From positions 1-50,633 of the forward strand of contig NW_021834469.1 of the NCBI RefSeq assembly GCF_006345805.1: DNA of 50,633 bases, written 5' to 3'. The position numbers and the translations under genes are program-made. The stretch is from Octopus sinensis (Eukaryota). Shown here piece after piece: positions 3,544 through 49,730 of this stretch. The notes below the pieces were generated by a model. The model did not search any database, was not told the origin of the DNA, and was given only the letters and a program-made list of their open reading frames with translations. Each line of letters begins with the position of its first letter. Positions within the stretch are counted from its first letter, which is position 1.

Positions 3544-4544
3544 AATATATAGTTATGTGCCTTTACGTTCAAAGACCAGTAGAGTAAATTAGACCGCTAA
3601 AGCAACTGGCTGGTGGAGCAACGGACATCATGTCTTCTGATGTTTAGTTACGACCCTTTACGTTATGAGTTCAAATCAGTAGAGCGGCAGACAACATGTC
3701 TTGCGCTATTTATCTATAATCCTTTACGTTCCAATCTCACCAAAGTCAGCTCTTCTTTTCATTATGATTCTTAAGGGCGAAAAACTAAAGTATTAATTAC
3801 GTAAGCAGATATTCTTAATTTGCAACCAATTCTAATCCTTCCCATTCCTGATGGTCTCTCACACGCCTAAAGCTGTATGTTAGAGACTGCTTATCTTTTC
3901 AGAAAAGAAAAATTACTTCCGGTCCCGACTCTTGCTAAATCTCTCTAGAACTCAAATGTGTTTCACCCACAGCGAAATTCTATTAATATATATGAAGCAC
4001 TGCTGCTGCCGTCCCTATGCACGGACGCCGGTAGTTTCTAACGTCTCTCAAACCTCATCATCGCTTCAAACAACCTTCTCCCACTTAAATTGTGTGATCC
4101 CCATATTAAACCTCCGTGATAAAATTAAATAATGGCTACAGTATACTAGATTGCAGCGACGTCCGGGTTGTTATTGACACAGACACACACAAACACGCAT
4201 ATAAACTTGTTACCGATTCCAATATGTTTGGGGCAAATTCAAACTCGTGAGAAAGTCATTCACAATATTTCATCATGGAGAAAATTTCTCGCTCCGTGTG
4301 CAAATACACCGCGTCTGCTTACAACGTCTCCAAACAAGATCGTGGGATGCACGTATTTCGGTGTTTTTATCACCTCTTCAGTAGCAGAGATCGGAAAGAC
4401 AGACGCTGCGAACTGACAGGAGAATATGCATATCTCTCTCTCTCAATATTTATATCCATATATATGTAACTACATACGTATTTTACATTTATACCTACCG
4501 GGTAATTCGCGATCACATTCACTCTTCCCTATAACCTTCTACTA

Positions 4545-4786
4545 GCTCTCTCTCTCTCTCTCTCTCTCTCTCTATCTATCTATCTATCTATCTATCTATC
4601 TATTTATCTATCCATCTATCTATCTATCTGTTTATCTATCTTTCTATCTATCTATCTATCTATCTATCTATCTATCTATCTATCTATCTATCTATCTATC
4701 TATCTATCTTTCTATCTATCTATCTATTCTATCTATCTATCTATCTATCTATCTATCTATCTATCTATCTATCTATCTATCTATCC
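4545..4786. repeat. (CT)n + (TCTA)n microsatellite
   Basis: Directly visible. Confidence 0.95.
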
Positions 4787-5199
4787 ATATTTTTATGTGC
4801 TTATTGTATCTCCGGGTGAACCGCCCGTTTCATCTTTTATTTAAACCTTCATCAGGAGACAAAAATTCAGAGGTCCTCTTTGTAAATGGCTTTATAAACC
4901 ATATTCAACGACGCAAAGGATATCCCTCACCACCAAAAACTAAACCAGAGAATAACACAAAATATCATATTTAATGGCCCAAAATCCAATTTAATTTTAG
5001 AAAAGTTTTCAATTATTAGGAGTATGCCTAATTTGCCAGCTTTGTTAAATTAGCTTTATATACCGGTTTATATAAATTTCACGTGCTCCTATATCTGATT
5101 TATGTGTTATCAGTACCTGCTCATCCCTATGATATTTGATTTATATATAGTTTTAATTAATAGAATTATGGCAAGCAATTCAATTCAGTTTATTAATTT

Positions 5200-5710
5200 T
5201 AATTATCATTGTTATTATTATTATTATTATTATTATTATTATTATTATTATTATTATTATTATTATTATTATTATTATTATTATTGTCATTATATTATTA
5301 TTATTATATATATTATTATTATTATTATTATTATTATTATTATTATTATTAGTATTATTATCATCATTACCATTATTATTATTTCAATTTTAACTAATGT
5401 CGTAATATCGTCAATTTCATGTCCTTATACGTAGATGAACACACACACGCACCACACACACACACACATACACACACACACACCACACACACAGACATAT
5501 ATATATTTATATATATGTGTGTGTACATGAATTTATATATATGCATATATCATTATTATTATCGTTATTATCATTATTGTTATCATCATCTTCATTATTA
5601 TTATTATTATTATTATTATCATTATTATCATCACCACCACCATCATCATCATCACCATCATCATCATCATCATCATCATCATCATCATCATCATCATCAT
5701 CATCATCATT
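5200..5710. repeat. (TTA)n, (CA)n and (CAT)n microsatellite cluster
   Basis: Directly visible; explains the poly-Y/poly-H ORFs. Confidence 0.95.
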
Positions 5711-6405
5711 TTTATAATTGTGATATCAACTTAAATAATCTCGTATAACATCGTATATTTCAATTAATATAATTAGATCTTTCCATCTGATTTATGGATT
5801 GTCAGTATCACTTAACCGCCATGCATATTTCGTTCATTTAATTTACTTAATCAATAAGACAACTGCTAATAATCAACACTGTTAATTTCTCTACCTCCAT
5901 TACATACATCGCCTACATTTTTTTCCTGCTCACAGGTTTATGAAATATTAAAAATTGCATTCACATTTTATAGCTTAGTTACTTCCATACTTTTTTTATT
6001 CGCTTCTTTAGAGTAACGACTGAAATATAAATCCATCTTCGTGATTAATATTTATTACACCTATTTAGCTCATTTAGACGTATTAACACTGTAATGTGTC
6101 TTAACGGTTAAAGTCTTGTGCTCAAAAACATGTTGCCTGATCGATTTCTGGCAATGTGTATCTGGGCAAAGTAAGACACATCCCGTGGAACTAGACCAAC
6201 GTAAATATGGCAAACCATGTCTAGTTCAGTCTGATTAATGTGAATATCAGCAGGGTACAATCGTCCAATCCAGGGGCATGGCTTCAAAGATTGAGATATC
6301 GATTGCTCAGTTCTTTATTTTTTTCTATAGAAAATTCTATTTAATTCTATTTTGATAATCAGAACTTCACAAATGACCTCGACTCGATGACTCCTTAATG
6401 CGAAT

Positions 6406-6449
6406 CATATACATTTGCTGTTTCGATGTCACTGGCTCTCTTCAGTACG
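6406..6449 (-). ncRNA. Candidate type I hammerhead ribozyme
   Basis: Minus strand: CGUA-CUGAAGA-GAgccagugacaUC-GAAA-CAgcaaaUG-UA-UAUG; complete core, GUA triplet, short helices I and III, weak helix II. Confidence 0.55.
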
Positions 6450-46559: not shown

Positions 46560-47000
46560 AATAAAAATACCAATAATGATAATATATTAATATTAATAAT
46601 ACTAGTAGCTGTAATGATAATAATAATAGAAATAATAGGACTCGTGATGACGATGATATGATGATGAGGATGATGCTGATGCTGATGATAATAATAATAT
46701 AATATAATATAATAATAATAATAATAATAATAATAATAATAATAATAAAAATAATAGTAATAATAATAATAATAATAAAAATAATAATAATAATATAATA
46801 AAAATAATAATAATAATAATAATGATAATAATAATATAATAAAAATAATAATAAGAAAATAATAATAATGAATAAATAATACTAATTATAATAATGATAA
46901 TAAAATAATAATAATAAATAATAATATAATAATTAATAATAATAATATAAATAATAATAATAATAATAATAATAATAATAATACAATAATAATAATAATT
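46560..47000. repeat. (TAA)n degenerate tract
   Basis: Directly visible. Confidence 0.93.
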
Positions 47001-47889
47001 GCCACCGCAATAAAAGAAACCCCAATCACGAGTCAAAAAACATTGTTGTAGAACACTCGCGTAAAAAGGTGCGAGTAATTTGAAAATTACTGTTGTGATT
47101 GAAAGAGCTTTTTAGCAAATGGACGTATTCTTGATTTCTGCCACTTTAGAGATTGCCTGAGTTTCATCGCCTGTTATATGTAGGCTTTTTTCGTTTGTTT
47201 GTTTGTTTTTATTTCATGTATAATGCGTATGTGTATGTGTGCAGTTGTGTTTGCATTACATGAGGCATAGCGTGATCCTGTTGCAATGCCATGCAAGTGT
47301 TCACTTAACTATGAAATAAAACGTGGCGAAAGTACGTGAATAAAATGTTCAAATGTTTTGATTGATATTTTTCATCCTTTTTATTCTGTTTCTTATTTAT
47401 AGTTCCCACTAATTTCATTTATTTATGTATTATTTGTATTATTTTACTTTATAATTTGTTATGTTTTTCTTCAAAATTATAGTTATATATATATGTTATT
47501 TTTATAGGACTGTTGTTTTATGTTGGTGTTTGTTTTAGGTATTTCATGGGAAATGAATGGAAAGTTCACCGAATAATTTACTTGAAAAATAAGAAAAAAA
47601 TATTCTACATATGTGATTCTAACTATGATAACGAAGAATGATTTTTAGATGCCGTGAATAGTTAGAAGAATCGGTAAATCGGTAAATTGAACGAAAGAGG
47701 GATTTTTACGATATTTAGGCAGCAGTCATATCCTTATATCCCAAGTTCAAGCCATACCAACTTGAATAATCTCATTTGTTCTTCTGCGGTTGGAAAAATA
47801 ACGCCAAAGGAATTTTGGTGTGTTTTGTAAGAATTCCGGGACCTAGAGCGTGATTCTTTCTACCGGCACTAGACAGCTCAATGAATGGT

Positions 47890-48181
47890 AAAATCTGGAG
47901 GAATAGCATTCTGATGGAAGAACACATTTCTTCTGGAAGCCAAAGACGGTCGTTTTTCTTCCCGCCCTGACTGAAGACGCTGAAGCTGCTCGCAGTAGAT
48001 CTCGTTTGTTATCGTTTGGTTCGGGTTTAAGAGCTCAAAGCGGACTAAGCTTTTCATATCCCACCAAGCAGATAACAACACCTTATGTGGGTGGAATCCT
48101 TCTTTGCCCAGGGGTGCCTGCGTTTCTCCTTTCCCTACCCACTGTCTTTGAAGCTTGATATTCTTTTAGAGAACCCATTTC
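47890..48181 (-). mobile_element. Mariner transposase fragment (catalytic domain, pseudogenised)
   Basis: KWVL*KN...QW...HPHKVLLSAWWDMKSLVRFELLNPNQTITNEIYCEQLQRL...EKRPSLASRRNVFFHQNA matches mariner KWxxY, HxxKvML.vWWD, YCxQL and HxDNA motifs. Confidence 0.92.
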
Positions 48182-49538
48182 AATATTTAAAATATATATT
48201 TTTGAAATATTTTTTGAGGTGATTGGGTGTGCTAGATTCCCTTGTTCGAAAATATAAGGACACAGATCATGTTCTATAGCCAGCTGGAGTCTATGTCTCT
48301 TGGGACTAAATTACAGCAACATTAGTCCTCAACCAGGACTGCCATGTTATGTTGGCAAACAATCTTTACTTCGATAATATACTTGTTAGGAGAAAGGCCA
48401 GTAACAGAGACGCACAGACTACAAATGCACCGCATTTGCTTTTAGGTTTGAGTGAATGTTAAAATATAATATGTAAAACTAAAATAAAGAAAGAGACAAT
48501 CAAACAAACAGATTTACAGTTCACTTCCTACAGTTGCTTCCGACTTTCTATAAAAGTTTGTGGATGGGTCCTGGTGATTTTTTGGACCTTAATATAAACG
48601 GAAATGACAAATGTCCACTTTATGCATTCGCAATTGTATTATTAGGGGCTGGCATAGTGTACAACAGATATTTACTATCCTACAGTCATATTCAGGGACT
48701 TACATATGATTCACGCAGATGTCTCTTTGAAGTTGTGATTCAGTTATCAGCGATAGTGCACAGGTCTTCAAGTTGTGATTCTCTTATTGTTGAGAGTATG
48801 TAGTACTTGAAATTTTATGGTTGCTAGTATGCAATGGTGGAGTCTATGATTCTCTTAGTTTTCATAGAAAAAAATCACGATGTTAAATTATTTCCAGTCA
48901 AGTAGAACAACCACTACTTAAAAAGTCTTCTGTGATCAATACAAAAAATATAGAAGCAAATATTTAAATTATTTCTTAAAAATATTCGGATGCATTATAA
49001 GGCTTCGCTATCTTTAATTTCTTATCTGCTATTTAATTAGCAGTTTTCTGCGTTTCTCTTGGTTCTTTTCTAGAAAGTAATGGTAGAGAGGTGAGGATTA
49101 ATACTTTCGGATAAATTTTTAAGTTAATTTGTGGGTTAGTTGAATATTTTTGTTGTATCTATTTGAAAATATTCGTATGAGTCCATTTCGTTTCTTTTAT
49201 ATTTTGTTTGTGTGAATATATGAAATGATTTATGCGGTTTCTTATAAGTGTGTTTTTCTGAAGCCTTTGAGTTCAAGAGAATAGCAAGAAAATTATCTTT
49301 TTAACGGAAGAGTCAAATGTGATTGCTAAGCTTAATTTTTTTAAATAAGATTAAATTTTTCTTTAATTCTTTCGACTATTTTATACATACGTACACGCAT
49401 GCTTACACACACACACACAATATATATATATATAATACATTGACATATATACAGATATACATATATATATGAGGTACTATATAAATATATATATATACTA
49501 TATATATATATATATATATATATAGAGAGAGAGAGAGA

Positions 49539-49730
49539 GTTTACGAAAAAAACAAAAGACGAAGACAGGTGGTGTACAAAACAAACGGATGTATTAGTAT
49601 AACGCTCAGGAATAGAAAAAGATTTTTACGTTTCGAGCCTACACTCTTCTACAGAAAGGGAAACAGCAAAACAAGGAGAGAAACAAGGAGAGAGAAAAAT
49701 GTGTGTAGTGGCTAACGACCTATCATGGCG
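49539..49730 (-). mobile_element. Repeat family C 3' end abutting (TA)n(GA)n
   Basis: aaaagacgaagacaggtggtgt...gtattagtataacgctcagg...acgtttcgagcctacactcttctacag. Confidence 0.82.

Follow-up and report, generated by a model that had tools for sequence, protein, structure and literature searches.

Hammerhead motifs of Penelope-like anatomy in an Octopus sinensis contig, and an abundant repeat with a changed ribozyme core

A 50,633-nt stretch of the Octopus sinensis genome (contig NW_021834469.1, positions 1 to 50,633; hereafter the window) raises the question of what kind of element left so many hammerhead-like motifs behind, and whether these still act as ribozymes. A sequence-only reading had counted a dozen or more of them, ascribing them to non-autonomous Penelope-like element (PLE) or retrozyme families that colonize microsatellites. 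The count largely survives, with 12 of the 14 named sites standing, two of them weakly or by homology. Chance resemblance in DNA rich in AT and in repeats is an extremely improbable explanation: a type I hammerhead scorer found five intact-core motifs scoring at least 8, whereas the means in 100, 100 and 60 dinucleotide shuffles were 0.04, 0.05 and 0.07, with never more than one in any of the 260, so that shuffled sequence does not approach a similar density. Allowing one core departure gave six matches scoring at least 10 against 0.03-0.14 in shuffles (maximum 2), the reversed window sequence gave none, and one group of motifs, family C, is a repeat family. CUGANGA words as such exceed the control only mildly (25 versus 17.6), which shows that the enrichment signal comes from the helices. 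A strict descriptor without mismatches caught only one canonical motif, and the scored descriptor was used instead for this reason. For the top motifs the chance reading is refuted; it holds for the two-mismatch tier (six seen versus 5.97 in controls) and for the named site 10724, a 3' half without a 5' core that we regard as unsupported. It may possibly extend to the site at 4381 described below. One further match, at 3775 on the minus strand, had not been named earlier; it scores 10.8 with G5 changed and a helix II of 2 bp, and is probably chance. The earlier assignment of all motifs to type I is upheld, as type II readings gave no match in the window and the three type III readings all scored below 10. 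Rfam models gave no match in the window at the gathering score, and by E-value no hammerhead stood among the best 150 of 293 matches, where microsatellite-like miRNA models dominate.

The full core (C3 U4 G5 A6 N7 G8 A9 / G12 A13 A14 A15.1 / U16.1 H17) is present at five sites, here designated by the position of C3: 44115, 32899, 34353, 6445 and 4381. Helices I-III surround the core, with the ends in helix I, the weak points being helix II at 6445, helix I in family C and helices I and III at 4381. The four full-core motifs reported at 6406, 32858, 34350 and 44108 were all recovered in place with scores of 10.1-17.8; each has one copy in the window, and its element ends are undefined. The best of them (44108..44160, plus strand, C3 44115, score 17.8, predicted cut after 44153) has a helix I of 7 bp, a 4-bp hairpin as helix III and a U-U mismatch at 10.1-11.1, and is flanked on both sides by TA-type tracts; a second copy of its family's 3' tail lies directly after a TA tract at 8023..8043 (plus strand, 21 nt, 95% identity over 21 nt, E 2e-4). 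The minimal motif at 32858..32905 (minus strand, C3 32899, score 14.95, predicted cut after 32864) shows an ACGU palindrome, a bulged A after A9 and one helix II mismatch. It belongs to a head-to-head inverted pair (32805..32983) with arms at 32805-32869 and 32919-32983 that are 86% identical over 65 nt; the second arm, the single case of an inverted 5'-truncated arm in the window, begins a few bases from the predicted cut site, the arms diverge beyond the 65 nt, and the flanks are AT-rich rather than microsatellite. Neither a target-site duplication nor the 30-40 bp tail that PLEs may carry at one end could be delimited. A third motif (34350..34411, plus strand, C3 34353, score 13.15, predicted cut after 34408) combines a 6-nt palindromic helix III with a long helix II and a 3-bp helix I, and occurs once in the window. 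The fourth (6406..6449, minus strand, C3 6445, score 10.1) has a 3-bp hairpin helix III, a 4-bp helix I and a decayed helix II of only 2 bp. The sites that had been called degenerate fared unevenly. That at 4808 is a good, if decayed, type I hammerhead (4804..4862, minus strand, C3 4855, score 12.05) with a 4-bp GC hairpin as helix III, G at the U16.1 position and a (TATC)n tract that lies 28 nt beyond the cut site on the 3' side; that at 4346 is ambiguous (4338..4388, minus strand, C3 4381, score 8.05), its core being intact and its helix II 4 bp long, with neither helix I nor helix III clear; and that at 8385 (8382..8423, minus strand, core at 8417) is plausible as a decayed minimal hammerhead by eye, with a GAAA short by one A, and was not accepted by the scorer.

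Family C had been credited with five to six motifs, and we count six motif-bearing copies, two found by the scorer and the others by homology. Two of them, at 25245..25400 (plus strand, C3 25277) and 25433..25573 (minus strand, C3 25540), lie tail-to-tail across a shared TA tract (25401-25432), at which the first of them stops; a third (29973..30158, minus strand, C3 30100) stops at the TA tract 29931-29972, and a fourth (49539..49723, minus strand, C3 49654) runs out into (TC)n followed by (TA)n. The longest (44321..44895, plus strand, C3 44766, predicted cut after 44793) has homology to other DNA from about 44530, its 5' limit at 44321 being inferred from the TA run before it. A diverged copy (45810..45935, plus strand, core at 45824) has C3, G8 and A9 changed and U6 kept. 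Self-comparison also showed an upstream part of the family that stops just before the motif (42804..42971, plus strand). Core position 6 is U in five of the six copies and C in the copy at 25433..25573, with A in none, while U4, G5, G12, A13, A14, A15.1 and U16.1 are invariant; position 7 is C in four copies and A in two, and both A and U occur at position 17. Sequencing reads on family C are likewise divided between U and A at position 17, and none of the best 40 of the 161 differences listed falls at position 6 (44769); by our reading of those listed, A6 is the majority in none of four runs. The helices are paired in 89% of cells, with two-sided change in none of eight pairs (in six sequences only), and helix I is just 3-4 bp long.

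The adjacency to TA-type microsatellites stated for many of the motifs proved to be a property of two families. Going up to 130 nt in the 3' direction from the cut site, one meets a (TA)4+ tract at six of 13 sites, against a background of 16% (P=0.01), five of the six being family C copies; among the other sites only 44115 qualifies (one of seven). All six family C copies meet a TA or TC run 80-119 nt past the cut site. Microsatellite targeting of the kind known for some PLEs, with (TA)n or AT-rich targets, fits family C and 44115, and not the remaining sites.

The anatomy of the motifs agrees with the published consensus for the minimal hammerheads (min-HHRs) of metazoan PLEs (Cervera & De la Pena 2014, PMC4209133): both are type I, with a U-rich leader, an extra base after A9, G10.1-C11.1 and an ACGU or other short palindromic helix III (palindromic 15.2-16.2), and in both most motifs are dispersed singly, a genome holds more than one family, in fact several, and there are opposite-strand pairs, such pairs being described for truncated PLEs. 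Craig et al. 2021 (PMC8557442) describe Hydra-clade PLEs, including the Octopus family Hydra-1_Obim, and give the clade as (TA)n-preferring; the hammerheads of that clade, located toward the 3' end, have a hairpin helix III of 3-4 bp, and 44115, 6445 and 4855 resemble them, 44115 with its TA tracts most fully; by eye the helix III stem of 44115 is identical to that in four of the 26 Hydra-clade entries of their File S2. However, the helix sequences in the window are unlike the listed Hydra-1_Obim motif, and loop 3 at 44115 has 8 nt as against 1-3 nt in the Hydra-clade table, and no ORF places the clade. None of 12 short window motifs occurs in the consensus files of that study, in which line breaks can hide matches. 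Taken together, we read the motifs as what is left of pseudo-LTRs at the 3' ends of several independently inserted PLE families, with a U6 core in family C, and give this reading a probability of roughly 0.7. Single dispersed type I motifs, the termination of family C at TA/TC runs, its steep 5'-ward fall in abundance and the inverted pair all speak for it, and a hammerhead near the 3' end with variable 5' truncation fits family C; the PLE link itself is suggested entirely by anatomy. Unlike the families of PMC4209133, those of the window have no ORF link: a Pfam scan (27 of 236 frames) and a six-frame motif scan found no PLE ORF, confirming the earlier remark that no PLE reverse transcriptase is visible. 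Nor did a reverse transcriptase or GIY-YIG ORF emerge beside the five loci from other contigs considered below, and hence none of the families is connected with a reverse transcriptase. The absence of such ORFs is expected for truncated copies.

A second reading, in line with the earlier proposal, has family C, and perhaps others, descend from a PLE 3' end as a non-autonomous SINE- or retrozyme-like element that keeps master copies of its own and is moved by PLE protein supplied in trans. Its attractions are the sheer numbers (the 50.6 kb hold six copies, and two DNA runs yield about 10,100 contigs apiece), the lack of any visible ORF and the occurrence of sequence words of the family C stretch in runs under four organism labels. 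Moreover, animal non-LTR retrozymes (PMC7229834; Li, Clavereau & Pollet 2026, 10.64898/2026.07.22.740005) are, like the window motifs, non-coding and type I with a proposed PLE origin, being viewed as derivatives of PLE pLTRs that are often monomers. Yet the 5' ends vary among the copies, the hammerhead lying 80-119 nt from the 3' end, and abundance drops steadily 5'-ward: in run X6 the summed contig depth, which is not a copy number and is biased by likeness to the window's longest copy, falls from about 3.3 million next to the motif on its 5' side to 0.29 million and 0.05 million at distances of about 130 and 180 nt from it on that side. Retrozymes, furthermore, are hammerhead tandem units giving rise to circular RNAs (Cervera & de la Pena 2020, PMC7229834), and neither is seen in the window: no tandem unit with a hammerhead in each repeat occurs among 134 TRF entries or in the self-BLAST of the window, no tRNA head was detected, and about 5,600 RNA reads showed no circle-type joint among the best 15 of 19 joints for a 336-nt family C stretch. 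We accordingly consider this reading unlikely, and the motifs are best read as 5'-truncated PLE 3' ends rather than as retrozymes. The several type I families of PLE style and the inverted pair at 32858 thus sustain the PLE half of the earlier proposal; its retrozyme half finds no such footing, its non-autonomous families are accounted for equally well by truncated copies of autonomous PLEs, and the ribozyme processing that it supposed is doubtful for family C.

Within the PLE reading, family C shares the layout of the Acropora Neptune min-HHR except at position 6, which is U or C in the window versus A in all 56 motifs of Fig. S3 of PMC4209133, where U6 forms could not appear since the descriptor used required A6. 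We think it probable that family C, with its U6, is a weak or silent ribozyme. Substitutions of A6 reduce hammerhead activity, as reported for A6C (PMC3088659, PMC7151607) and for CUGA-turn mutants. The less likely converse is that the U6 motif is a working variant, acting as a dimer via the ACGU palindrome or with another metal, and that cleavage belongs to the family C cycle. In its favor, positions 7 and 17, which are free to vary, do so, whereas the remainder of the core is conserved; position 6 of one window copy is C; and a natural A6C hammerhead, that of phage Bcep176, is active and better so in Mn2+ (PMC3088659, PMC7151607). The two share a natural change at position 6, but the Bcep176 motif is a lone C6 one from a phage, with an activity that was measured and is low, whereas in family C U6 appears to be the usual state of a mass-amplified animal repeat. 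Against a working ribozyme, no read-end pile-up marking cleavage was seen on family C in two RNA runs, a weak test given that an active PLE hammerhead likewise gave none. Additionally, U6 is predicted to pair with A15.1, closing the junction into a rod, in two of the six copies (P 0.85 and 0.65) and in locus L007 (0.81).

Other contigs speak to both sides. The exact family C pattern had no match in viral and metagenome contigs; a relaxed pattern found two viral and 12 metagenome loci, which say nothing on the frequency of U6 because the pattern required it. Nine of these 14 have no convincing helix I and by eye look prokaryotic or phage, four of the nine being two contigs counted twice, and L013 lies within a protist-like kinase gene. 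L003 and L014 have a helix II and a poor helix I. L006 and L007, in eukaryote-like contigs, are predicted to fold as U6 minimal hammerheads with paired helices, which would favor a working U6, and L006 also shows an opposite-strand pair; but U6 and A6 copies of one family adjoin in L006, indicating that U6 arises by plain decay too. No PLE ORF lies beside L003, L006, L007, L013 or L014, or at any of the relaxed loci. Literature searches turned up nothing on hammerheads of octopus or on a U6 PLE hammerhead, most subscription papers lying outside the search; an A6U report (PMC11662667) concerns twister ribozymes rather than hammerheads.

A course of events under the PLE reading can be outlined from known PLE biology. 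The PLE endonuclease would cut AT-rich or (TA)n DNA, and the reverse transcriptase would begin about 20-120 nt downstream of the hammerhead and copy through it, usually halting within a few hundred bases to leave a stub with one hammerhead and, at times, an inverted second arm. Such stubs hold sequence from both sides of the cut site, implying that the RNA which served as template was either intact at that site or had been re-ligated. Consistent with this, hammerhead-dead mutants of a lizard PLE insert in vitro all the same, with uncut RNA as the main template. Uncleaved RNA is probably what is copied, so that a weakened ribozyme could spread freely; on this reading family C was amplified with U6, the lost cutting costing the element nothing and perhaps helping it, and its fold would persist because the copies descended recently or because the protein of the element uses it as a handle. 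Such stubs would now be passive, their presence in RNA reflecting read-through.

Dense PLE-type hammerheads are known from invertebrate genomes, which makes the overall finding ordinary, and the multi-family PLE hammerhead system as a whole is already in print (PMC4209133, PMC8557442). What remains new is family C, a minimal-hammerhead layout with U, and once C, at core position 6. Some PLE clades are without hammerheads, and dead mutants insert in vitro; family C, with its very high copy number, its presence in several species and a change at a normally fixed core base, offers a natural experiment on what hammerheads do for PLEs. A tentative possibility is that this U6-hammerhead, PLE-derived repeat, among the most abundant of this animal group, carries an undescribed working core variant, gated by dimerization or metal, or else a rod-shaped RNA handle that improves the template. 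Were either to be true, family C would show, as a natural high-copy test, if the element benefits from PLE hammerheads or they just ride along, and searches bound to A6 would overlook a large class of motifs.

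A type I scorer combining core letters with helices I-III, in which helix III could be palindromic or a hairpin, found five intact-core motifs at a score of at least 8 in the window (C3 at +44115, -32899, +34353, -6445 and -4381), against 0.04-0.07 expected from 260 shuffles at three scales. Allowing a single core departure, six motifs reached a score of at least 10, versus 0.03-0.14 in shuffles; a two-departure tier gave the same count as chance and was dropped. The reversed window yielded no scorer matches, and Rfam at gathering scores recognised no motif. In the same window type II readings gave 0 matches and type III readings none as high as 10, in agreement with the type I assignment of the sequence-only reading. 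Of the 14 sites named there, the four main motifs are upheld by the scorer, at a density that shuffled sequence does not match, and its family C, a dispersed repeat with a changed core position 6, stands at six copies (two by scorer, four by homology). Its degenerate sites fared unevenly: 4808 (-4855) is a good decayed motif, 4346 (-4381) is ambiguous, 8385 (-8417) is plausible by eye and 10724, which has no 5' core, is not supported as a hammerhead. We regard the hammerhead motifs of the window as mostly real.

Two kinds of motif are present. Those that are minimal, with a palindromic helix III (32899, 34353, family C and perhaps 8417), match the consensus for minimal hammerheads of Penelope-like elements (PLEs) in the available part of Cervera & De la Pena 2014 (PMC4209133). 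Those with a true hairpin helix III (44115, 6445, 4855) resemble the Hydra-clade PLE hammerheads in the accessible table of Craig et al. 2021 (PMC8557442), where the helix III stem of 44115 recurs identically in 4 of 26 Hydra-clade rows, and where this clade, including an Octopus family, is entered as (TA)n-preferring. The 32899 motif sits inside a pair of inverted arms placed head-to-head, with 86% likeness across 65 nt, an arrangement known from truncated PLEs. A linked PLE reverse transcriptase/GIY-YIG ORF, proposed as a check on the initial idea, was found in the window neither by Pfam (27 of 236 frames, picked as not low-complexity) nor by a six-frame motif scan, and 12 short window motifs had no match in the catalogued PLE consensus files available with PMC8557442. 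Motif anatomy, rather than an ORF that would place the clade, suggests that the window motifs work like PLE pseudo-LTR hammerheads. Retrozymes, as described in the accessible parts of a 2026 preprint and PMC7229834, are defined by tandem units; neither a tandem-repeat listing nor self-comparison of the window revealed such a unit holding a motif, so the motifs of this window do not fit that definition.

Many of the motifs were initially said to lie beside TA-type microsatellites. At 6 of 13 sites a (TA)4+ run lies no more than 130 nt 3' of the cut, versus 16% at random (P=0.01), and family C supplies five of these six. Under a looser run definition each of the six family C copies runs into TA or TC 80-119 nt past the cut site, two of them facing tail-to-tail over one shared tract. 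Among the seven other sites only 44115 (TA) and 4855 (TATC) abut a tract; microsatellite targeting thus characterises two families and does not extend to the whole set.

The window is eukaryotic, AT-rich DNA, 26% of it covered by tandem-repeat masking, with several SINE-like families scattered through it; its repeat landscape suggests an octopus-like source. At 14547-15194 an inverted pair of a SINE-like 3' part flanks internal TA tracts; full copies of this repeat lie at 18833-19234 and 41836-42238 (96% alike), and ARAGORN detected no tRNA. A second SINE-like family (26786-27217, 3325-3570, 33082-33324, 37930-38142, 2248-2462) shows head-to-tail partial duplications of ~190 bp. A perfect 30-bp minisatellite of 6.1 copies (39473-39656) has expanded within a simple-repeat stretch that adjoins a SINE, and a near-perfect (97%) direct duplication of 389 bp within TA/CA tracts (27379-28179) is either a recent event or an assembly artefact. 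Another repeat, of ~350 bp, has two copies ~95% alike (6911-7261, +; 20137-20500, -), each bounded by a TA run at one end and abutting a SINE at the other. Both contain an open frame of 105+ codons with no Pfam match above cut-off, and the repeat has a short GC stem followed by GAAA, with no valid hammerhead 5' core; its layout is by eye faintly like the Hydra-1_Obim 3' end, and it is possibly another PLE-type tail. The only Pfam match above curated cut-off in the 27 of 236 frames is a mariner transposase remnant (47878-48165, -; PF01359, E 9.5e-19). A frame of 92 codons, flanked on each side by an (ATT)n tract (40934-41212, -), has no Pfam match; from its appearance it may be the C-terminal endonuclease portion of a retrotransposon of the R4/Dong type.

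Octopus genomes have already been described as containing Penelope expansions (PMC13282606 and PMC8967140, in their accessible parts). The hammerhead system as a whole is known, and the abundant U6 family is the only part not found in print; our literature search, with Lunse et al. 2017 outside its reach, returned no publication on a U6 PLE hammerhead. Position 6 aside, family C has the layout of a Neptune-type minimal hammerhead (Acropora row, available part of the Cervera & De la Pena 2014 supplement). Position 6 is U in five copies and C in one, position 7 holds C or A, and position 17 holds A or U; U4, G5, G12-A15.1 and U16.1 are unchanging in all six. Sequencing runs aligned to 44560-44895 at 80% likeness gave 10,187 and 10,100 contigs (two DNA runs) and 2,796 and 2,832 reads (two RNA runs), and words of the repeat, never more than 46% of the 33, occur in runs from four organisms. 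The commonest alternative letters at 44783 and 44797 restore helices II and I, respectively, of this reference copy, and U and A divide position 17 between them. Because each of the 40 difference rows listed, of 161, makes up roughly half of the reads in at least one run, yet none covers core position 6, we read A6 as a minority letter in all four runs. Abundance, as depth dependent on likeness to the reference copy and not as copy number, drops about tenfold over the ~130 nt on the 5' side of the motif and falls further beyond, similar to 5'-truncated retrocopies.

The family C ribozyme is predicted to be weak or silent (probability about 0.65). Substitutions at position 6 reduce cleavage: in the accessible parts of the respective reports, A6C hammerheads cleave at <0.1 per min with partial Mn2+ rescue (PMC3088659, PMC7151607), and CUGA-turn mutants have low activity (PMC9901934). 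That the U6 motif is instead an active variant seems rather unlikely. U6-A15.1 pairing can close the junction in two of six copies. Among all six, no two-sided helix change occurs. RNA reads fall equally on both strands, with no read-end pile-up in the two RNA runs and, among the joints listed, none of the circle type that the suggestion of circular RNAs had envisaged; cut ends are also absent from RNA-seq for an active PLE motif (Frangieh et al. 2024, accessible part). Minimal hammerheads with U6 also occur in two eukaryote-like metagenome contigs, L006 (3752-3865) and L007 (2465-2494), the former with one A6 and one U6 motif head-to-head. These side-by-side copies show that U6 also arises through decay, and they count against a weak-ribozyme PLE stub, as do the missing ORF link and consensus-file match and the undefined element ends of single-copy motifs.

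According to the available part of Frangieh et al. 2024, the PLE protein cleaves AT-rich DNA, reverse transcription begins at an internal RNA position downstream of the hammerhead, the template is mostly uncut RNA, and hammerhead-dead mutants can still insert in vitro. We infer that each window motif is a PLE 3' end copied by reverse transcription. Each stub retains sequence across its own cut site, so the template RNA of that stub would have been uncut there; a weaker ribozyme would therefore be no handicap to the element, and may even be an advantage.
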